This document shows positions 6,037 to 41,278 of a stretch of 45,980 nt of DNA, one piece after another (position 1 is the stretch's first letter; every line of letters begins with the position of its first letter). The position numbers and the translations under genes are program-made. The notes under the pieces are model-generated. The model searched no databases and had not been told where the DNA came from. It saw only the letters and a list, made by a program, of their open reading frames with translations. Source of the DNA: an uncultured Eubacteriales bacterium (GTDB lineage Bacteria > Acidobacteriota > Aminicenantia > Aminicenantales > Saccharicenantaceae); the NCBI GenBank assembly GCA_964541055.1, contig CAZIQR010000002.1, positions 1-45,980 of the forward strand. The letters run 5' to 3'.

Positions 6037-8925
6037 TCACTTTCGTTCGCTGCGGTCGGAGGGCGGGGCCATGAGCCGGGTCGTGTATTCCGTCTCGACG
6101 TTCTCGAAGAAGGCCCCTTCAAATCGTCCGGGCTCGAGGGTCGGCAGGCTGACCTCGATATCGATGGGGCTGTCGGGCCGGATGCGGCTGACGTCGGCGT
6201 AGTGGCCGATGAAGGTCCGCTCCGGCGAGTGCCCGTAGATGCTGTTGTAACCCTTGAGGATCTCGACCGGCTGGCCGTTGATCCTCAGGCTCACGGGCAT
6301 CGCGTCCGTCCCATCGATGATGGGGATGTGGAGGAGCAACCGCCAGGGAGCGAGCCACGGGGACCGTAAATCCTCATCGCTGTAGGCCACGGGCCAGGAC
6401 TTCTTGCGCTCGACGAGCTGGTCGAGGACGCGCTTCGGCACGGTGATGCGGGCCTTGTAGATCCCGCCCGTGAACCCGGCCGGGACCGGACCGGCGCATT
6501 GGGACTTGGCGAAGACCCGGCCGGCGAAGCGCACCGTGGCCGTAACCACGTTCTTGTCGGCCTTGAAGGGGTAGGCGACGCCGTTGACCGAGAGGGCCCG
6601 GACGCGGGACTTCTCCGGCACGACGACGACGAGCGTCCGCGAGGTCCCGGCCTCGGCCGTGACCTCGGTCAGCGCCAGGCGCGTGGACTGGAGCGCGGCC
6701 GCGCCGGCGGCGTTGAAGAGGATGGGCTCCTTGATCGCCGCCGGGGCGGGAAAGACCTCGTAGACCGCCGCTTCGCGGCCCGGCAGGGTCAGGGCGACCT
6801 CGCTGCCGTAGGTCCACGGGCCCTCGGGAGAGCCGACGAGGCGGCCGGCCTCGGGATAGACCTCTTTGATCATGATCCGGTCGCCCTTGACGAGGCCGAT
6901 CGTCGGGTCGAGCTTGAAGCGGGCCGTCTTGGGGCCCGGATTGGGATTGAAGAGGAAAAGGAGGCCGCGGTCCTCGACGATGGCCGCCGTGCCGTCGATG
7001 CGGCCGGCCATGGGCGGGCCGAGGATCGGGCGCAGGGCGTGGAGGTAGCTCGCGTTCTCGTCCGTCCAGTCGAGCCAGCCCTTGAAAAAGGCCTTGTCCT
7101 CGTCCGAGAGGGCCTTGAACTCCTCGGGGTCGCGGGCCGGGATGAAGTCAATGACGTGGTTGAAGGGCGCCGTACCGATCGAGGACAGGAGCGAATAGGT
7201 CCAGCCGAGGACGTCCCAGTCCTTGGCGTGGAAGCGGTCGCGGCGCATGACGCCGGCCCCGTCGTTGCGCTCGGACTGGTGGGTGATGAAGCCGGGCATG
7301 ATCTCGGGCGGCGTAAATCGCTCGACACGGTAGGTCCAGGCGGCGAAGCGCTGCCGGTCGGCCGAGACGCGGTCGGTGTGGAGGTCGGGGAAGGCCTTGA
7401 AGCTTTCCGGCTGCTCGTCGGTCAGGGTCGGATGCGGGTAGGAGCCGCCGAGCCAGGTCCAGGGGCCGAAGTTCTGATATTGCTGGCGGCCGTCGACGAC
7501 GGCGTCGAAGGCGGCCCGGCGCAGGCTCTCGAGGATGCGGCGGCCGCCGTACCACTGCGCGTATTTGCTAGAGGCCTTGTCGAGGGCGATCCACCAGTGA
7601 TCGAAGGAGTAGCCGGCGGCACCGGTCGCCCTCATGAACGAGAGGAGCTTGTCCAGCCACCAATCCTGGAACGAGCGCAGGCCGGTGTCGGCGCCGGCTT
7701 TCGAGGCGCCGTCGCCGGCGTAGGCCGTCCACTCGGGGTTCTGGAGGAAGGGCAGCGAGGGGTAGGCGTAGGCCATGAGCTTGAGCTTCTTCGAGGCGGC
7801 GTAATCGAGCATGGCCTTGAGGCCGGCCGGCACGTCGTCACGGCGCGGGTCCCAATCCCCTTTCCGGATCTTCTGGCCGAGCCCGAACCAGAGGACGTTC
7901 TCCCAGCCCCACGAGTCGGCGTTCTCGTCGAGGCTCGAGAGGGCGCTGTTGGCCGGGGTGTAGAGGAGGTGGGTCGCGCCGAGCTCGGCGGCCCTGTCCA
8001 TGATCCGCTTGTATTCCTCGACGCCTTCGGGCGTGCCGACGTCGATCTGGTAGTCGTTCTCGCACCACGGGATATGGACGCGGACGCCGCGGGTGGGCAG
8101 GTCGAGCAGGAACGAGCGTACGCATTCGACGAGGGCGTTCGACTCGGCGATGTCGATCGTCGGCGAGTCCTTGAGGAGCTTGTCGTAGTCGGGGACGAAG
8201 ACCCATTCGGGCACGGCCTTGGCCGGGATGCGCAGGCCGGCGAGGTCGGTGATGCCGAGGCAGAGGCGGTCCGAGGCGAAGGGGCCGAGGTCGCGGCTCC
8301 AATCCATGTCGGGGGCGTAAGAGACGGAGACCGCGGCGCCTTCGCGGGTCCAGGTCATGAACGGGTTCTGGAGAAGGAAGAAGACGCTCCACGCAGTCCC
8401 GGCGGAGGCGTCGGCCCCGAGGAAGCGGCAGACGGCGCCGAACGAGCCGCCCTTGAGGGGCAGCTCCTCGACGACCGAACGGTCGAGCCGGGTCTGGAAC
8501 GGCATGACCGCGTTGATGTGAAAAGCGCGGCTCCGGGCCGAAGAGACGACGATCTGCTTGGTCAGGAACTCCCAGGCCGGCTTGAGCTCGTAGATGACGT
8601 CGAAGGTGTAAGGATCGCGGGTGTAGCGGTAGGCGACCTTGGCCGGGGTCATCTCGATCTCGGCCGGGCCGAGGCTGCCGATGAGAACGGCGGCGCCGTC
8701 GATGGTGATCGTGGACGGGTCGGCCGAGAAGGCGAGGGCGCGGCCGGACTTGGGCAGGCTGATGGAGGCGATCCCCTGGTCGTTGAAGGCGGCGCGGATG
8801 CGGCCGTTGTCGAGAGCCATGTCCTCGGCGTGGGCCTGGACGGCGGAGGCGAGAAGGACAGAGAGGGCGGCCAGGGCCAGAAGAGCGCGGGTCGGGCCGG
8901 GGGACGTCGGGCGCATCGCGGTCAT
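6037..8925 (-). CDS. large secreted protein, putative glycoside hydrolase, family unassigned
   Basis: 962-aa ORF with native codon bias. Signal peptide ...LLALAALSVLLASAVQAHAED. AAGGAG SD upstream. Lies 91 nt downstream of GH127 on the same strand. I see no diagnostic catalytic motif, so the function is only inferred from context and size. Confidence 0.7.
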   Translation of the reverse strand: MTAMRPTSPGPTRALLALAALSVLLASAVQAHAEDMALDNGRIRAAFNDQGIASISLPKSGRALAFSADPSTITIDGAAVLIGSLGPAEIEMTPAKVAYRYTRDPYTFDVIYELKPAWEFLTKQIVVSSARSRAFHINAVMPFQTRLDRSVVEELPLKGGSFGAVCRFLGADASAGTAWSVFFLLQNPFMTWTREGAAVSVSYAPDMDWSRDLGPFASDRLCLGITDLAGLRIPAKAVPEWVFVPDYDKLLKDSPTIDIAESNALVECVRSFLLDLPTRGVRVHIPWCENDYQIDVGTPEGVEEYKRIMDRAAELGATHLLYTPANSALSSLDENADSWGWENVLWFGLGQKIRKGDWDPRRDDVPAGLKAMLDYAASKKLKLMAYAYPSLPFLQNPEWTAYAGDGASKAGADTGLRSFQDWWLDKLLSFMRATGAAGYSFDHWWIALDKASSKYAQWYGGRRILESLRRAAFDAVVDGRQQYQNFGPWTWLGGSYPHPTLTDEQPESFKAFPDLHTDRVSADRQRFAAWTYRVERFTPPEIMPGFITHQSERNDGAGVMRRDRFHAKDWDVLGWTYSLLSSIGTAPFNHVIDFIPARDPEEFKALSDEDKAFFKGWLDWTDENASYLHALRPILGPPMAGRIDGTAAIVEDRGLLFLFNPNPGPKTARFKLDPTIGLVKGDRIMIKEVYPEAGRLVGSPEGPWTYGSEVALTLPGREAAVYEVFPAPAAIKEPILFNAAGAAALQSTRLALTEVTAEAGTSRTLVVVVPEKSRVRALSVNGVAYPFKADKNVVTATVRFAGRVFAKSQCAGPVPAGFTGGIYKARITVPKRVLDQLVERKKSWPVAYSDEDLRSPWLAPWRLLLHIPIIDGTDAMPVSLRINGQPVEILKGYNSIYGHSPERTFIGHYADVSRIRPDSPIDIEVSLPTLEPGRFEGAFFENVETEYTTRLMAPPSDRSERK

Positions 8926-35237: not shown

Positions 35238-36892
35238 CTCGGCCTCGTGAGCAGGCCGTCCAATCCCCACTTCTTCTCGGCCGCGAGGGTGCGGAGCGGT
35301 TTCTTCGGCGGTACGAAGGACATGGCCCGCTCGGCGAAAGCCGTGATGGACAGGGCCGGGTTGACGCCCAGGTTCTCGGGGATCTGGGAGCCGTCGCAGA
35401 TGAACATCCCGGCGTAGCCCTTGACCCGGTTCCGCTCGTCGATGACGCCTTCCTCGGGCGTCGGGCCGAACGAGCAGCCGCCGAGGATATGGGCGGTGAT
35501 GGGCGCCCCGACCGTGACTTCGCTGATGACGTTGGCCGCGCCGCCGCCGATCCGCCGGGCCAAGCGCTTGCCGAAATCGTTGCCGGCCGGGAACCAGGTG
35601 GGGTGCCGGGAATCGCCGCCGGGCTTCGAGGCAAGGACCGTCGCGAAGGGGAAGAACCACGGCCGGCGCCGCTTCAGGTGGAAATAGTTGTCGACGGTCT
35701 GCATGACGAGCAGGATGATCGTTTCCTTGGCCCAATTATGCGGGCTACGGATGCGGAAGTTGCGGACGGGATGGCGAAGCTCGTTCCCGAGCCAGCGGAG
35801 CATGCGCGGCAGTCTCTTCCCGCCGTCGGTCAAGGCGGCGACCAGGGCGCACATGGCGTCATGCCCCTTACCGAAGCGGACCGGCTCGAGATGGGTCTCG
35901 TCGTCGGGATGGACGCTCGAGGTGATGGCCACGCCCCGGGTGAAGTCGTCTTTCTTGAAAGACCGGACGCCGAGCATGGTCTCGCTGTTCGTCCGGGCAA
36001 AGCGCCCGAGATGTTCGGAGAGGTTGGGAAGACGCTTTTTGCGTTTCAGGTCAAGAAGCAGGGTGTTGGTCCCGAGCGCCCCGGCGGCCAGGACGAGGCC
36101 TTTCGCCCGCAGCGTGAGGCCGCGTCGCCGGCGGAACAGGCCGGTCGTCTTGCGCGTCCGTAAGATGTATCCCTCGCTCCCGTCCGCGCCGAGCGCCTCG
36201 ATGTCGACGACCTTGTTCTCGGCGAAGATCCGGGCCCCGAACTTCTCGGCGAAGTAGAGATAGTTCTTGTCGAGGCTGTTCTTGGCGTCCTTGCGGCAGC
36301 CGGTCATGCACTCGCCGCAGAGCTCGCAGCCGACGCGGTCCGGCCCCTCGCCCTCGAAATAGGGATCGGCGGCCGGCTCGCCTTCCTGGCCGAAATAGAC
36401 GGCAACGTTGGTCAGGCGATAGGTGGACTCGCGCCCGATCTCGGCCGCCGTCTCGCGCATGGCCACGTCCTGGACCGTCTCGACGGGGTTGGGCGTGAGG
36501 CCGAGCATGCGGCCCGCGAGCTCATAATAAGGAAGGAGCTCGGCCTTGCCGCCGAGGCGCCGGACGCTCGGCCGCTCGAAAAAGACGTCGGGCGGGACGT
36601 AGAGGGTATTGGCATAGTTGAGGCTGCCGCCGCCGACGCCGGACCCGGCCAGGATGAAGGCGCCGTTGAGAAGCCTAAGGCGCCACGTGCCGTAGAGGCC
36701 GAGGCCGGGCATCCAGATGAACTTGCGCAGGTTCCAGTTGCGGCGCGGGAACTGATCGGCGTGCCAGCGGCGGCCGGCCTCGACGACCCCGACCGAATAG
36801 CCCTTCTGGGCCAGGCGCATGGCCGAGACGCTGCCGCCGAAGCCCGAGCCGACAACGACGAAATCGAAAACGAGCTCGTCTGAGGTCTTCAT
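35234..36892 (-). CDS. GMC family FAD-dependent oxidoreductase (cholesterol oxidase-like)
   Basis: N-terminal FDFVVVGSGFGGSVSAMRLAQKGYSVGVVEAG (GxGxxG FAD fold). 552 aa. C-terminal GMC_oxred_C-like HILGGC...ICDGSQIP. Confidence 0.85.
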   Translation of the reverse strand: MKTSDELVFDFVVVGSGFGGSVSAMRLAQKGYSVGVVEAGRRWHADQFPRRNWNLRKFIWMPGLGLYGTWRLRLLNGAFILAGSGVGGGSLNYANTLYVPPDVFFERPSVRRLGGKAELLPYYELAGRMLGLTPNPVETVQDVAMRETAAEIGRESTYRLTNVAVYFGQEGEPAADPYFEGEGPDRVGCELCGECMTGCRKDAKNSLDKNYLYFAEKFGARIFAENKVVDIEALGADGSEGYILRTRKTTGLFRRRRGLTLRAKGLVLAAGALGTNTLLLDLKRKKRLPNLSEHLGRFARTNSETMLGVRSFKKDDFTRGVAITSSVHPDDETHLEPVRFGKGHDAMCALVAALTDGGKRLPRMLRWLGNELRHPVRNFRIRSPHNWAKETIILLVMQTVDNYFHLKRRRPWFFPFATVLASKPGGDSRHPTWFPAGNDFGKRLARRIGGGAANVISEVTVGAPITAHILGGCSFGPTPEEGVIDERNRVKGYAGMFICDGSQIPENLGVNPALSITAFAERAMSFVPPKKPLRTLAAEKKWGLDGLLTRPS

Positions 36893-37123
36893 GTCCGCGG
36901 GTGGGCCTCACTCTACAAAAGACTGGCGACGGGGTCAAGGGCCAAGAGCGCGCCCGCCCGGACGGGGCGGCCGGGCGAGCCGGATCGTCCCCGTGATATT
37001 CCGGCTCTAAATGTCATTTCATGAACAAGATAGTCCTCGGGGGAAGACAATTTTTTGGGTCGAATCCAATTTTTCAGGCGCGTCTTTTGACACAATTAAT
37101 GCTATCATCCGGGGTGAGTCATT

Positions 37124-39304
37124 ATGCTTGAGATACGCCCGTCTGCCAGTCTGCGTCTTCTTATCTTCACGGGCTTGGCTTTCTTGGCTATGACAGGTGC
37201 ATCGCCGGCTCCCGCCCGTGGACAGAACCAGACGCTGACGAAGCCTCTTCAATACGAAGTCAACGTCGTCCTCAAGCTCATCCATGTCTACGTGACGGAC
37301 AAGAAGGGCAACCCCGTGCCGGACCTGGTCGCGGGGGATTTCGTTGTAACGGACAACGGCCAGACGGTGGCGATCACGGCCCTCGAAAAGCACACCATCA
37401 AGGCCCAGCCCGCGTCTCCCGAGGAAGCCGCGCGCGTCGAGCCGCGTGAAGAGGCGCCCGTCGCGAAGCCTCAACCCGGCCCGGAGTCGAGCCGCAAGTT
37501 CTTCCTCTATTTCGATTTCGCCTATAACAACATGCGCGGCATCCTGAAGGCCCGCACGGCGGCCCTCCACTTCCTCGACGATGTTGTCCGTCCTGACGAC
37601 CAGGTGGCGGTGCTGACCTATTCCGCGGTCGGCGGCCTCTCCTTCCATGAATACCTGACGAGCGATCACGCCAAAGTGCGCAAGGTCCTTGAGGAGATCG
37701 GCCACCAGGACATCCGAGGTCGGGCGACCGAGATCGAAGACGCCTACTGGCGGCTGATGCAGGATTCCCCCGGCACCGGGGCCGGAGCGGCCATGGGCAC
37801 GAACTTCCGGGCGGAGGCCGACGCCAACCGCCAGGAATCGAGGAGCATGGCCCAGAGGTTCATCCTGGAGATGACGGGCCTGGCCCGCGCCCTGCGGCTC
37901 GTCGACGGGGAGAAACACTTCATCCTCTTCTCGACCGGCGTCCCCAACGCCTTGATCTATGGCTACACTCCAGGCAACCCCTTCTATCGGTCCGGCTTCG
38001 GCAGCGGCGAAACGGTCGGCGACAACGTCCTGCGCGGCCAGAACGAACAGATGTACAAGGAATTCAGCGCCGCGGGCTGCACGTATTACACGTTCGACAC
38101 GCGGGAAACGGCCAAAGAGGTCTCGCTCTTCACCTATGACGACGTCACCCTGGCGACCGGGGCCCGTTCCATGAGCACCGGGGTCACGGGCGCGACGGAC
38201 GTTTTCAAGGACGACAAGCAGGGCGGGCTGAACTCGCTCAAGCGGCTCTCCGACCTCACTGGCGGGAAATACTATTCGAACATCAATAGGTACGATAAGA
38301 ACCTGGCCCAGATCCAGGCCATGACAGGGACCTATTACGTCCTCGGTTACGCCATCAACGAGCGCTGGGACGGCCAGTTCCACGACGTCAAGGTCGCCGT
38401 CAACCGCAAGGGCTGCGAGGTCCGGGCCCAGGCGGGATACTTCAATCCCAAACCGTTCAGCGAATACACCGATCTCGAAAAGCAGATCCATCTCTTCGAC
38501 CTGGCGCTCAACGAGAAGGCCTTCTCGCGACTGCCTATCAACGTGCCGATGATCGCCTTGGCAACCGGAGCGGAAGGCCTCTCGCGGCTGGCCGTTCTGG
38601 CCAAGGTCCCGGCCGAGGTCACGGCCAAGCTCAAGGGCCAAAAGGTCGAATTCGTGGCCATCTTCTTTGATGCCAAGGGCGAGATCAGCGAGATCGTCCG
38701 GGAAGAGGCCGATCCGTCCGCGCTGAGGGACCGGGACTTCGCCTTTGCGGCGGGCGCGACGCTCAGCCCGGGGGATTACTCGTGCCGCCTGGTCATCCGG
38801 GACATAGGGACGGGCACGAGCGCCGTGGCCGCGGCCAAGGCGACGATCGTCAAGCCCCAGATCACGGGGCTCCAGCTCGGCACGCCCCTGATGCTCGAGG
38901 CCCGGACGGGATGCCGGCTTCTCGTCCCGACGGCAAAAAAGGCCAAAGCCGCTTTTCCCTGGGGCGAGATCTATCCTTATGACAGTGCGCTCTACGCGCC
39001 GGTCATGAACGAGTGTACGTCGGCGGCAGTGAACCTCGAGGCCGTCATCCCCTGCGCGAACGCGGCCGTCCAGTCGGACCTGGCCGTGACCGCGGCTCTG
39101 GTCAACGCCGCGACCGGGGCGCGCTCGCCCGTCGCCATCTCGGCGATGAACCGGACCCCCAAAGGCCCGCTCGAGATCCTGTCCCTGGAGATCCCGACGG
39201 CAGGCATTGCCCCGGGGACGTATTATCTGCATTTCTATGCCCAGGACAGGGCCTCGGGCGCGCTCGGGCACTCGTTCACGACCCTGGTCGTCGCCCCGCG
39301 ATAA
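37124..39304 (+). CDS. VWFA-related domain protein (TIGR03436-type, Acidobacterial)
   Basis: Signal peptide. N-terminal YEVNVVLKLIHVYVTDKKGNPVPDLVAGDFVVTDNGQTVAI is the characteristic start of this family. A VWA-like core follows (FFLYFDFAYNNMRG...VAVLTYS). Confidence 0.8.
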   Translation: MLEIRPSASLRLLIFTGLAFLAMTGASPAPARGQNQTLTKPLQYEVNVVLKLIHVYVTDKKGNPVPDLVAGDFVVTDNGQTVAITALEKHTIKAQPASPEEAARVEPREEAPVAKPQPGPESSRKFFLYFDFAYNNMRGILKARTAALHFLDDVVRPDDQVAVLTYSAVGGLSFHEYLTSDHAKVRKVLEEIGHQDIRGRATEIEDAYWRLMQDSPGTGAGAAMGTNFRAEADANRQESRSMAQRFILEMTGLARALRLVDGEKHFILFSTGVPNALIYGYTPGNPFYRSGFGSGETVGDNVLRGQNEQMYKEFSAAGCTYYTFDTRETAKEVSLFTYDDVTLATGARSMSTGVTGATDVFKDDKQGGLNSLKRLSDLTGGKYYSNINRYDKNLAQIQAMTGTYYVLGYAINERWDGQFHDVKVAVNRKGCEVRAQAGYFNPKPFSEYTDLEKQIHLFDLALNEKAFSRLPINVPMIALATGAEGLSRLAVLAKVPAEVTAKLKGQKVEFVAIFFDAKGEISEIVREEADPSALRDRDFAFAAGATLSPGDYSCRLVIRDIGTGTSAVAAAKATIVKPQITGLQLGTPLMLEARTGCRLLVPTAKKAKAAFPWGEIYPYDSALYAPVMNECTSAAVNLEAVIPCANAAVQSDLAVTAALVNAATGARSPVAISAMNRTPKGPLEILSLEIPTAGIAPGTYYLHFYAQDRASGALGHSFTTLVVAPR

Positions 39305-39346
39305 CCTTATCAGGCCCCGCCCCCGGGGAGATGGGACAGGATTGTT

Positions 39347-39390
39347 TTACCCTACATTTTCTTGACATTCGTCCTTTTGTAGGGTAATTT
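39347..39390 (+). promoter_or_regulatory. near-consensus promoter (TTGACA-17-TAATTT) embedded in the perfect palindrome TTACCCTACA-N21-TGTAGGGTAA
   Basis: Palindrome arms at 39347-39356 and 39378-39387. TTGACA at 39362-39367. TAATTT at 39385-39390. The ATG at 39397 is only 6 nt after the -10, with no SD. Confidence 0.55.
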
Positions 39391-39396
39391 GTCCGC

Positions 39397-40392
39397 ATGG
39401 AAGATCTTAGGAACGTCCTCAACGAAAATGCCGCGTTCTATAAGGACCAGGAACGGAAGATCTCCGCGCGGCTCGCCCTGCTCCCGAAAGGCACGGTCCG
39501 GATCAAGGTGATCGGCGAGGAGCATTATCATTATCTCCAATACAGAAAAGGCCGGTCCGTCAAAACGGATTATATCGGGAAGGTCGTTCCTCAAGAACTC
39601 AAGGACAACCTGGCGGAGAGGGACCGATTGGAGAAGGAACTGCTAAGGGTCCGGGAGGCCCAACGCCTCCTCAGATCGGGGCGAGGGGAGGAGCTCGATC
39701 TCACGGGCCCCGTCATGGACATCTTGCGGGCGATGACGGCGCACAAGCTCTGGGATGAGGGATTCGAGATCATCGGCAGCTGGTGTTTTCTTCTCTATCA
39801 AAAGCATCTGCCGATGGAGAAGTATCCTCTCCGGACGGAAGACCTCGATATTCTCGTGCCTCGACCGTTCAAGGGGCGTCCCTTTGACTTCGGAGAGCTC
39901 ATGGAGCGCCTGGGTTTCCGCCAGCATTTCAATGCGGACGGGTCCGTCTACTTTACCGGCAACCGGATGAAAGTGGAATTCGTCACCAAAGAAAGGAGGG
40001 ACGGAACCCTCCCCCCCCGCTTTATGAAGGAGATCTCCTTGACGCCCCAGGAACTGAGGCACCTGGAGATCCTCGCCGCCGAGCCTGTCACCCTCAAACT
40101 CGGACGGGGGACGCTGGCCCGCGTTCCCAGCCCCGCGGCATTCCTCTTGCACAAGCTTTTTCTGGCCGCCCGCCCTGAGCGATCGGCGAAGAGGGAAAAG
40201 GACATCAAACAGGCCGTATACGTCGGCCGGTATATTCTCACGGAAGCTTGTGAAAGAGCCCGATTACTCGGTCTTTGGGCCGGTCTCTCAAAGCGGTGGA
40301 AGTCTCTGGTCCGGCAGTCCTTGACAGGCGCCAAGGACTTGATGCCCCTGGAAACGCCTGCGATCGAGAGACTGCTGGAAATTCTAGGCTGA
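39397..40392 (+). CDS. Pol-beta-superfamily nucleotidyltransferase-fold protein (AbiEii / GSU2403-like) with fused N-terminal beta-hairpin/coiled-coil module
   Basis: 331 aa. NTase signature IIGSW (res 125-129) ... TEDLDILVP (D149, D151). N-terminal HYHYLQYRKGRSVKTDYIGK followed by a heptad-like ERDRLEKELLRVREAQRLL. Distinctly lower GC than all its neighbours. Confidence 0.7.
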   Translation: MEDLRNVLNENAAFYKDQERKISARLALLPKGTVRIKVIGEEHYHYLQYRKGRSVKTDYIGKVVPQELKDNLAERDRLEKELLRVREAQRLLRSGRGEELDLTGPVMDILRAMTAHKLWDEGFEIIGSWCFLLYQKHLPMEKYPLRTEDLDILVPRPFKGRPFDFGELMERLGFRQHFNADGSVYFTGNRMKVEFVTKERRDGTLPPRFMKEISLTPQELRHLEILAAEPVTLKLGRGTLARVPSPAAFLLHKLFLAARPERSAKREKDIKQAVYVGRYILTEACERARLLGLWAGLSKRWKSLVRQSLTGAKDLMPLETPAIERLLEILG

Positions 40393-40393
40393 T

Positions 40394-40434
40394 TTACCCT
40401 ACAAAACGCGGGATCCCCCGCCTCGGTAGGGCAA
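40394..40434 (+). repeat. second copy of the TTACCCTACA-N21-(T)GTAGGG(T)AA palindrome, starting 1 nt after the stop codon
   Basis: TTACCCTACA at 40394-40403 (identical to 39347-39356). Right arm gGTAGGGcAA at 40425-40434 (8/10). Same 21-nt spacing. The spacer contains a small GCGGG/CCCGC hairpin. Confidence 0.55.
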
Positions 40435-40486
40435 GCCAGCCCGGACTCGTCAAAAGTCGGCCGCTTCTTGGGCCGAAGAAAACCGC

Positions 40487-40564
40487 TTGACAGCGTTACC
40501 TCTGTCTACTATATTCCTATGCGTGCATGTTAATATTGATTTAATATTAATTTGAACGCATAGG
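40487..40564 (+). promoter_or_regulatory. promoter TTGACA-17-TATATT followed by the palindrome CCTATGCGT-N31-ACGCATAGG with an AT-rich core
   Basis: TTGACA 40487-40492. TATATT 40510-40515. Palindrome arms at 40516-40524 and 40556-40564. The core is TTAATATTgatTTAATATTAA. The right arm covers the weak SD (TAGG) of the MerR gene. Confidence 0.5.
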
Positions 40565-40570
40565 TATACT

Positions 40571-41278
40571 ATGAACAAAGACGTCCTGACCCTCCAAGAC
40601 CTCGCCGCCAAGTCCGGCGTCCCGGCTGAGCGCATCGCCGAATGGGCCAAGGTCAAGCTCGTCAGGCCCGAGGGCTACGGCGAAAAGAAGGCGCCGCTCT
40701 TCTCCGCCGCCTCCCTCGAGCGCGTGGCCCTCGTCCAGCGCCTGGCCGACCTCGGCTACGGCACGGACGAGATCCTCAAGATCGCCAAGAAGGTCGGGCT
40801 GCCGAAAGACGCCCGCGGCAAGAAGAAGGCCGCCGGCAAGGACCGCTTCCTGACCGTCGGCAACCTGGCCGAGCGCTCCGGCGTCAGCCCCCGCACGATC
40901 AAACACTGGGAAGACAAGGGCATCATCGAGCCCGACATGCGGACCGAGGGCGGCTTCCGGCTTTACTCCGAGTACTACGTTTTCCTCTGCCAGCTCATCC
41001 GCGATCTCCAGCTCTTCGGCTATTCGCTCGAGGAGGTCAAGGCCATCTCGAACGACGTTCGGACACTCCTCGCGATCGAGGACGACCTCGAGGCCACGCC
41101 GCCGGCCGAGGTCGAGAAGCGCCTCGCCGCCATGCTCGAGGCCATCCGCGGCCTTTATGACCGCATGAAGCTCATCGAGGAGGGCATCGAGCGCTGGCGC
41201 GACCAGCTCAAGAAGAAGAAAAGGGACATCCTCGCCCTCCAGTCCCGGAACGCCAAGCGGGCCAAGCCCGCGAAGTAG
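40571..41278 (+). CDS. MerR family transcriptional regulator with two tandem MerR-type HTH domains and a C-terminal coiled coil
   Basis: Domain 1, about res 6-72 (LTLQDLAAKSGVPAERIAEWAKVKLVRPEG...LFSAASLERVALVQRLADLGYGTDEI). Domain 2, about res 93-158 (LTVGNLAERSGVSPRTIKHWEDKGIIEPDMRTEGGFRLYSEYYVFLCQLIRDLQLFGYSLEEV). They are joined by a Lys-rich linker. Confidence 0.8.
   Translation: MNKDVLTLQDLAAKSGVPAERIAEWAKVKLVRPEGYGEKKAPLFSAASLERVALVQRLADLGYGTDEILKIAKKVGLPKDARGKKKAAGKDRFLTVGNLAERSGVSPRTIKHWEDKGIIEPDMRTEGGFRLYSEYYVFLCQLIRDLQLFGYSLEEVKAISNDVRTLLAIEDDLEATPPAEVEKRLAAMLEAIRGLYDRMKLIEEGIERWRDQLKKKKRDILALQSRNAKRAKPAK

Follow-up and report, generated by a model that had tools for sequence, protein, structure and literature searches.

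Two palindromes around a nucleotidyltransferase gene of an uncultured Saccharicenantaceae bacterium: a predicted single-gene toxin-antitoxin-like module with its own operators

The AbiE and MenAT systems are the nearest comparison for the element described here, a unit of 1,088 bp (positions 39347-40434) in which one nucleotidyltransferase (NTase) gene is bracketed by two palindromes, O1 and O2. It was identified in a stretch of 45,980 nucleotides (contig CAZIQR010000002.1, positions 1 to 45,980, hereafter the window) from an uncultured bacterium of the family Saccharicenantaceae. The antitoxins AbiEi and Rv2827c exert negative autoregulation through inverted repeats in their promoters, and Rv2827c does so through two pairs of repeats (PMC7319586). 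In the window the promoter is likewise embedded in inverted repeats, and the effector has the nucleotidyltransferase fold (Foldseek match to MenT1, 8an5_B) together with the hG[GS] and DxD motifs. The module differs from AbiE/MenAT in belonging to PF12281 and not to DUF1814/PF08843, with no PADLOC match, and in carrying a helix-sheet-helix, DUF6788-like domain in place of the winged-helix AbiEi. Both parts are fused in one polypeptide instead of being encoded by separate genes of a bicistronic operon, although relatives of the module do have a small gene for the N-terminal domain (N-domain) that overlaps the NTase gene and do have palindromes in the promoter. The repeats also differ, with 10-bp arms and a gap of 20-21 nt here compared with 23-bp repeats 3 or 13 bp apart, and one putative operator is located past the stop codon.

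The pairing of a strong promoter site with a weaker one, hundreds or thousands of bp distant, is the layout of auxiliary operators in lambda CI (OL/OR), lac (O1/O2), gal (OE/OI) and deo, and in lambda the OL and OR operator regions flank cI-rexAB, thus the repressor gene itself. The module differs from these systems in having a single gene, another fold and a predicted repressor fused to an enzyme, and looping would here be a proposal. Insertion sequences give another comparison, for example IS1, where the promoter in the left end is repressed by the element's own end-binding protein InsA; such elements are about 1.1 kb long, with one reading frame filling the unit, related ends and the promoter in the left end. 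The module has the same layout of about 1.1 kb, one frame and a left-end promoter, but target duplication, a multicopy state and a transposase fold are lacking, and the boundaries of recent transfers are not at the repeats. A reading frame followed or flanked by an imperfect palindrome is shared with integron cassettes and with repetitive extragenic palindromes and their RAYT proteins (REP/RAYT). However, the arms TTACCCTACA/TGTAGGGTAA lack the attC core (RYYYAAC / GTTRRRY), there are no arrays and no integrase, and the gene has its own promoter; unlike REP/RAYT, the motif is not dispersed through the genome. The fused toxin-antitoxin defence protein CapRel(SJ46) holds a toxin-like enzyme and its regulatory partner in one polypeptide. 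The module protein would join an enzyme and a regulatory partner in the same way, but its enzyme family is unrelated, and phage sensing is not addressed by the data here.

Positions 39347-40434 probably constitute a self-contained, single-gene toxin-antitoxin-like module whose palindromes serve as operators of its own product, a reading to which we give a probability of about 0.6 on the basis of sequence comparison. The features of the unit are as follows.

39347-39387, no strand: putative operator palindrome O1, arms TTACCCTACA (39347-39356) and TGTAGGGTAA (39378-39387), 21-nt spacer, surrounding the promoter.
39362-39367, + strand: -35 hexamer TTGACA, positions 6-11 of the O1 spacer, with 2.0 bits at TTG.
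39385-39390, + strand: -10 hexamer TAATTT (family pattern TAAnnT), 17 nt after the -35, read from the sequence.
39397-40392, + strand: gene for a fusion protein of 331 amino acids (aa), its ATG 6 nt after the -10 hexamer.
39397-39711, + strand: N-terminal domain, residues 1-105, with a helix, a three-stranded basic sheet and a long helix; DUF6788-like; predicted operator-binding and autoregulatory module.
39712-40389, + strand: nucleotidyltransferase domain PF12281 (NTP_transf_8), motifs IIGS (125-128) and DLDIL (149-153), modelled with a MenT/AbiEii-like fold.
40394-40434, no strand: putative operator palindrome O2, arms TTACCCTACA (40394-40403) and GGTAGGGCAA (40425-40434, 8/10), 21-nt spacer.
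40408-40421, no strand: inner hairpin GCGGG-ATCC-CCCGC within the O2 spacer, lineage-specific and also present in genomes G002 and G054.

The right arm of O1, TGTAGGGTAA, is the reverse complement of TTACCCTACA, and O2 starts 1 nt past the stop codon TGA (40390-40392). An earlier note on this DNA had given the same coordinates, the 21-nt spacings, the 8/10 right arm of O2 and the O1-O2 distance of 1,047 bp, all of which were confirmed. It had also placed the -35 and most of the promoter spacer inside O1, and indeed TTGACA lies within O1 and the right arm overlaps the -10; the gene it took for an NTase is one according to Pfam (PF12281, E 3e-23). Its remark that the 10-mer was not seen elsewhere in the window could be extended to the whole 3.03-Mb assembly (66% GC), in which exactly three occurrences were found, each at the NTase gene. 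With up to one mismatch allowed, the window contains three matches compared with 0.25 expected. Since none of 100 shuffles reached three and the genome-wide copies lie only here, these occurrences are neither chance nor a generic repeat; the note had named a motif abundant throughout the genome, a generic REP, as the outcome that would count against it, and the genome-wide count of three arm copies, all at the NTase gene, speaks otherwise.

The geometry of the sites is conserved far beyond the genome of origin. Homologous loci were collected from genomes of the same genus and order, from one genome per GTDB species, from JGI metagenomes and from whole-genome pattern scans, which gave 87 non-identical genes, with protein identities as low as 40% and GC contents of 29-66%. 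O1 (TTACCCTACA-N20/21-TGTAGGGTAA) was present in 83 of the 86 testable loci, with its right arm ending 9 nt ahead of the ATG in 76 of these 83. O2 was present in 60 of 79 testable loci and begins 0-3 nt past the stop codon in nearly all of them (58/60). Each arm position carries 1.1-2.0 bits of information, a value somewhat inflated by the detection, which allowed up to three mismatches per arm. The spacer of O1 is conserved solely at TTGACA, and the spacer of O2 shows no conservation. The same arms occur in lineages of 29% GC and of 66% GC, and also in Nitrospira-like and Spirochaetota metagenome-assembled genomes (MAGs). O2 is more degenerate than O1 (left arm perfect in 23/51 and 42/69, respectively), and would thus be the weaker site, which matches the expectation for an auxiliary operator. 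In lineages with proteins 45-70% identical, the O2 arms were kept and the spacers had diverged beyond recognition, which argues for selection on the arms. In low-GC lineages O2 is near-identical to O1 including the spacer and a -35-like element (19/20 spacer positions at locus L027 and 18/21 at L121).

Arm sequence co-varies with the protein subfamily. Symmetric double changes were observed at arm positions 1, 5 and 7: the C-variant TTACCCCACA/TGTGGGGTAA in an entire clade, TTACACTACA/TGTAGTGTAA at L029 and L031, and GTACCCTACA/TGTAGGGTAC at L101. At L111 (also in G043) the C-variant is found in O1 and O2 alike, within one locus. Most proteins of the C-variant clade have His48 instead of Gln48 in strand 2, and an unrelated His48 protein at L123 also goes with a C-variant site, giving a suggestive hint, confounded by relatedness, that residue 48 is a candidate arm contact.

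Two-gene relatives were revealed among the genomes of the phylum, in which an N-domain gene of 104-139 aa overlaps a PF12281-like gene of 225-240 aa. Their promoters contain palindromes with inverted arms of about 10 bp and a gap of 20-22 nt, with other arm sequences; those of the relatives, and of one further fused form, are listed below.

G387: TTACCATACA
G551 and G233: TTGCCTAAC
G030: TTACCAAACA
G312: TTACACCACA
G359 (fused form): TATAACTAC

A constant architecture combined with arm sequences that are specific to each subfamily is what usually marks a regulator and its cognate operator, and such a pair is suggested here. Four of the six (G387, G551, G233 and G312) have tandem palindrome pairs with starts 56-58 bp apart, and in these four no downstream palindrome was found. 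Two operators appear to be a common state of the wider family. A genuine two-gene example exists also at L032. The split frames at L030 (Spirochaetota) and L031 were considered as the two-gene form and rejected, being frameshifted and probably broken or mis-sequenced copies.

The site is tied exclusively to the gene. The pattern ACCCYACA-N18-23-TGTRGGGT was found in 19 of 201 genomes of the order, with one or two copies in each, and the reversed control pattern was absent from the same 201 genomes. A stricter pattern was found in 7 of 401 phylum genomes, all of one class. Every match adjoins a homolog of the gene, a contig end or a gene remnant. The neighbours of the NTase gene are unrelated housekeeping genes and vary by locus (VWA and MerR genes in the window, protein kinase and GH127 genes elsewhere); because they differ between loci, the only constant companion of the site is the gene's own product. 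The suggestion of a repeated palindromic element family that the gene travels with did not survive these surveys, as 0-2 copies per genome, gene-bound or remnant, were seen in the 201 and 401 genomes.

The promoter is interlocked with O1, the first 3 nt of the -10 hexamer TAATTT being the end of the O1 right arm. A consensus promoter scan did not list it because the -10 matches in just 3/6 positions, but the TAnnnT pattern of the -10 was seen again in homologous loci. No Shine-Dalgarno sequence precedes the ATG of the NTase gene; since the ATG is also only 6 nt from the -10, a leaderless mRNA is predicted. An earlier start is excluded by a TAA that lies in frame within the O1 right arm. Three NCBI records (P0064, P0073 and P0075), named 'GSU2403 family nucleotidyltransferase fold protein', are versions of 254 aa which cover 76% of the 331-aa product. 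Their N-terminal domain seems to have been cut off by an internal start call, which is plausible for a leaderless gene with no ribosome-binding site.

For the encoded protein, PF12281 NTP_transf_8 (GSU2403-type nucleotidyltransferase) was matched by residues 106-283 with 83.3 bits over a cut-off of 26.3 (E 3.1e-23). AlphaFold models (predicted local distance difference test, pLDDT, 88-90; 88 for the window protein) gave a helix (2-28), three strands (33-61), a long helix (66-94), a disordered linker and the nucleotidyltransferase domain. By Foldseek the enzyme domain matched the MenT1 toxin of M. tuberculosis (8an5_B, E 4.4e-4, probability 1.0) and also a fungal NTase-like protein, so that, as modelled, its fold is MenT/AbiEii-like. 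G127, D149 and K253 are invariant in the family, and the catalytic motifs hG[GS] (G127-S128) and Dx[DE] (D149/D151) show little or no variation across it. NCBIfam and PADLOC gave zero matches to the protein, the Pfam scan gave no PF08843 (DUF1814), Pfam and Foldseek revealed no recombinase or transposase fold, and a sequence search against solved structures gave no match. The NTase may be toxic.

The sheet of the N-domain is basic, with 8 Lys/Arg and 3 Asp/Glu counted in residues 30-62. A profile of residues 1-105 matched 1,338 clusters (made at 50% identity) at E<=1e-3 among 1.84 billion representatives; the best 150 of the 1,338 were mostly stand-alone proteins of about 97-110 aa, with fused proteins of about 331-339 aa as a minority. 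Most homologs have precomputed matches to DUF6788 (PF20586), and 3 of 32 family members matched it in the scan (best E 0.0085). The few sub-threshold Pfam matches of the N-domain family are DUF6788 and Arm-DNA-bind_5, and weak structural matches, with E from about 0.27 up, include integrase arm-type domains, a Sac7d-derived binder and prefoldin beta. A full-text literature search returned nothing on the function of PF12281 nucleotidyltransferases or of the DUF6788-like domain.

From these observations a mechanism could be proposed, in which the N-domain would recognise the 10-bp arms. With 31 bp, or about three helical turns, from one arm centre to the other, both arms of a site would lie on one face of the DNA. 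Protein bound at O1 would cover the bases that immediately precede the -35 as well as the first half of the -10, and would thereby repress the promoter. Under such autorepression of a leaderless mRNA, the amount of the MenT/AbiEii-like nucleotidyltransferase would be limited by how much of it is already present. O2 might act as an auxiliary operator, raising the local concentration of the repressor and cooperating with O1, with the gene enclosed in a DNA loop of about 1.05 kb; O2 might also be a protein roadblock to RNA polymerase at the 3' boundary of the gene, alone or alongside looping. O2 could correspond to the second of the tandem operators in the two-gene relatives, shifted to the 3' boundary. 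The earlier note had proposed autoregulation with DNA looping. Its operator part is the direction best supported, by the conserved arms, the symmetric changes and the two-gene relatives; the looping part keeps the standing of a conjecture.

Several observations weigh against the operator reading. The N-domain of the window gave no Pfam match to DUF6788 at E<=10, and by Foldseek the N-domain alone gave no significant structure (best E about 0.27), with prefoldin beta, an oligomerisation fold, scoring equal to the integrase arm domains. About a quarter of the fused loci, a whole clade included, have neither O2 nor a second upstream copy, and O2 is thus dispensable. A loop of 1 kb would be just one way for a 3' operator to act. 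In addition, each of the five viral records that were searched has one site (in one record an arm cluster) and no protein homolog.

Those records belong to 14 IMG/VR contigs (L176-L189), from at least five unrelated groups, in which the exact palindrome TTACCCTACA-N19-21-TGTAGGGTAA was found; three composition-matched control palindromes gave 0 matches in the viral contigs. The viral records are fragments, 5-52% complete. In one phage group the palindrome forms a stem of 15 bp, followed by a T-run, in the space between tail-fibre genes. A search of the viral contigs with an 8-mer version gave 54 matches, estimated to be about the chance number, so the signal is limited to the 10-mer matches. 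Plasmid and phage collections contained no homolog and no copy of the cassette. On the phage contig L179 (24% GC), at 212-1107, an open reading frame of 96 aa overlaps (ATGA) a 188-aa gene with the NTase fold, which has weak DUF6036 and NTP_transf_5 matches; a palindrome begins 2 nt past the stop of that gene and is followed by a T-run. These two frames were considered as family members and rejected, showing no profile similarity beyond the DxD motif. In the provirus fragment L184, arms are clustered at 6591-6649, TAACCCTACA and TTACCCTACA being followed by three tandem copies of TGTAGGGTAA. A YqaJ recombinase-type gene lies on one side of the cluster and a small open reading frame with a replication-type gene on the other; the cluster looks like an operator or iteron region.

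The module has moved between genomes, as judged from its patchy distribution (6 of 24 genus species sampled), its identity pattern (the window copy is 70% identical to a copy from another family and 55% to one in the same genus), its differing loci (in G014, G018, G024 and G004 the cassette is on contigs other than the conserved MerR locus) and its GC content below that of the flanks (0.58 vs 0.64). When distant genomes are compared, the homology sets in precisely at the O1 left arm, and for G014 and G027 it ends at the right arm of O2; in our reading these limits would be the edge of selected sequence and not a recombination point. G014, G018 and G024 have cassettes that share 90-95% identity with one another, lie in different contexts and have 3-35 nt upstream and 20-100 nt downstream in common beyond the palindromes. 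At the VWA-MerR locus the full cassette is present in G000 and nothing of it in G046 and G051; G054 and G002 retain the last ~100 nt of the gene and O2 (in G002 also without its right arm), and G013 retains one palindrome with ~20-40 nt resembling the gene end. G129 has a solo palindrome where the metagenome contig L075 has the full cassette, and alignment of the two revealed a deletion of 1,028 bp, one end of which lies 43 nt inside the gene and the other 24 nt beyond O1. Solo palindromes were considered as empty attachment sites, the kind of site that the earlier note had suggested looking for in related strains, and rejected, as the alignments show ordinary deletions leaving 3' pieces of the gene.

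The remaining explanations differ in what they make of the two palindromes. They might act as nucleic-acid hairpins, O2 as a terminator or 3'-end stabiliser and O1 as an insulator against readthrough, with no dedicated protein. Both copies do fold well as RNA (-25 and -15 kcal/mol, z-scores -4.0 and -4.5), O2 stands at the very end of the reading frame, one phage family and L179 have the T-run mentioned above, and the deletion derivatives hold O2 beside the end of the neighbouring gene. Yet pairing needs no fixed sequence, and the arm sequence and the 20-21 nt loop are kept across phyla and GC contents; O1 is outside the transcript of its own promoter, and O2 variants with A-C and other mismatches break the pairing on either strand. 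No terminator was found on the + strand at O2 by the scan, whose only match there is on the - strand inside the spacer; CAAGCCAGCC directly follows the right arm of O2, and a + strand T-run is missing in the window and in most loci. The spacers downstream in O2 showed no excess structure relative to shuffled ones (z -0.32, p 0.19), nor did they differ from those of O1, and an Rfam scan of 39200-40650 gave nothing but two sub-threshold microRNA-model matches in the MerR leader. A hairpin role without a protein is therefore considered unlikely. A 'third arm' TTGCCCTACC upstream in G014 was examined too and dismissed as a coincidence, since it lies in the loop of an ordinary terminator hairpin that recurs downstream. 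O2 could instead be a functionless relic, left after a duplication of the promoter-operator region or of the entire cassette and a later loss of the second gene copy. The near-identity of O2 and O1 in low-GC lineages, spacers of L027 and L121 included, and the dispensability of O2 in a quarter of loci would fit this, but the arms that persist at 45-70% protein identity beside diverged spacers point to selection, and the position 0-3 nt past the stop is maintained, so we hold a relic to be quite improbable.

The palindromes might instead delimit a mobile element, serving either as sites of recombination or attachment or as terminal repeats bound by the encoded protein, which would be its own mobilising enzyme; the layout would be like that of an insertion sequence or an integron cassette. 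This would suit a 1.09-kb unit filled by one reading frame with the promoter in its left end, the homology limits at the O1 left arm and, for G014/G027, at the O2 right arm, and the patchy distribution, discordant gene and species trees, changing loci and deviating GC described above. Against it, there is at most one cassette per genome (none of ~600 genomes searched had more than one), no target-site duplication or direct repeat was found at the cassette ends, and the solo palindromes examined in detail (G129, G013, G054 and G002) are deletion remnants. Copies 94% identical have 3-35 nt upstream and 20-100 nt downstream in common beyond the palindromes, one cassette keeps the same context in more than 10 samples, and an attC core (GTTRRRY), a recombinase or transposase fold and copies in the plasmid and phage collections are all missing. 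The mobile cassette of the earlier note is thus not supported, in view of the deletion remnants, missing target duplication, single-copy state and relocations that carry extra flanks, and self-mobilisation is rated as very doubtful. Least probable of all, and by our estimate very improbable, is that a host or phage factor binds the arms in place of the gene's own product. The 14 viral contigs from at least five unrelated families, no homolog in the five records searched and the empty controls could be taken that way, but the viral records are fragmentary, cellular sites occur only with the gene or its remnants, the site follows the gene to Nitrospira-like and Spirochaetota MAGs, and the arm sequence changes with the protein subfamily. 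A variant of the operator reading may be mentioned here as well, in which the gene's own product, bound at both ends in a loop, keeps the NTase silent or inactive through its DNA-bound state, and DNA bearing the palindrome, such as that of the unrelated phage contigs, titrates the protein and switches the enzyme on. We regard it as quite improbable too; if true, it would make the unit a one-protein defence module triggered by DNA sequence.

Some further observations concern the surroundings of the module. A degraded copy (L008/L010, G004:C7 ~84672-85189) has an intact C-variant O1, after which only residues 1-44 and 219-330 are encoded, about 175 internal codons having been deleted. At L108 the cassette is directly upstream of a tRNA gene, and at L167 (G045:C61) a tRNA gene has a solo C-variant palindrome ~30 nt from its 3' end. 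The interval from the GMC-type oxidoreductase gene (- strand) to MerR, window 36892-40570, is a variable spot in the genus (also loci L155, L156 and L017); depending on the species it is empty or contains one VWA gene or two VWA paralogs (G002, G013 and G054), and in G055 just the last bases of the VWA gene are left. The control region of the tandem-HTH MerR gene (window 40487-40570) consists of TTGACA-17-TATATT followed by an inverted repeat CCTATGCGT...ACGCATAGG with an AT-rich core, and is conserved near base for base in about 30 genus genomes (L125-L154), whatever its upstream neighbour.

An operator past the stop codon would be unusual for toxin-antitoxin-like modules, and it is kept at just 45% protein identity. 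With the operator reading, the PF12281/DUF6788-like family gains a concrete cis-element and a predicted regulator, and the gene can be annotated as a predicted leaderless one of which some public records lack the N-domain. The half-site of 10 bp, its spacing and natural specificity variants are defined (T7C with Gln48His, and four other arm types of the two-gene form). The module would thus offer a compact natural system for long-range auto-repression, or for roadblock insulation, of a gene that passes from genome to genome and may be toxic.

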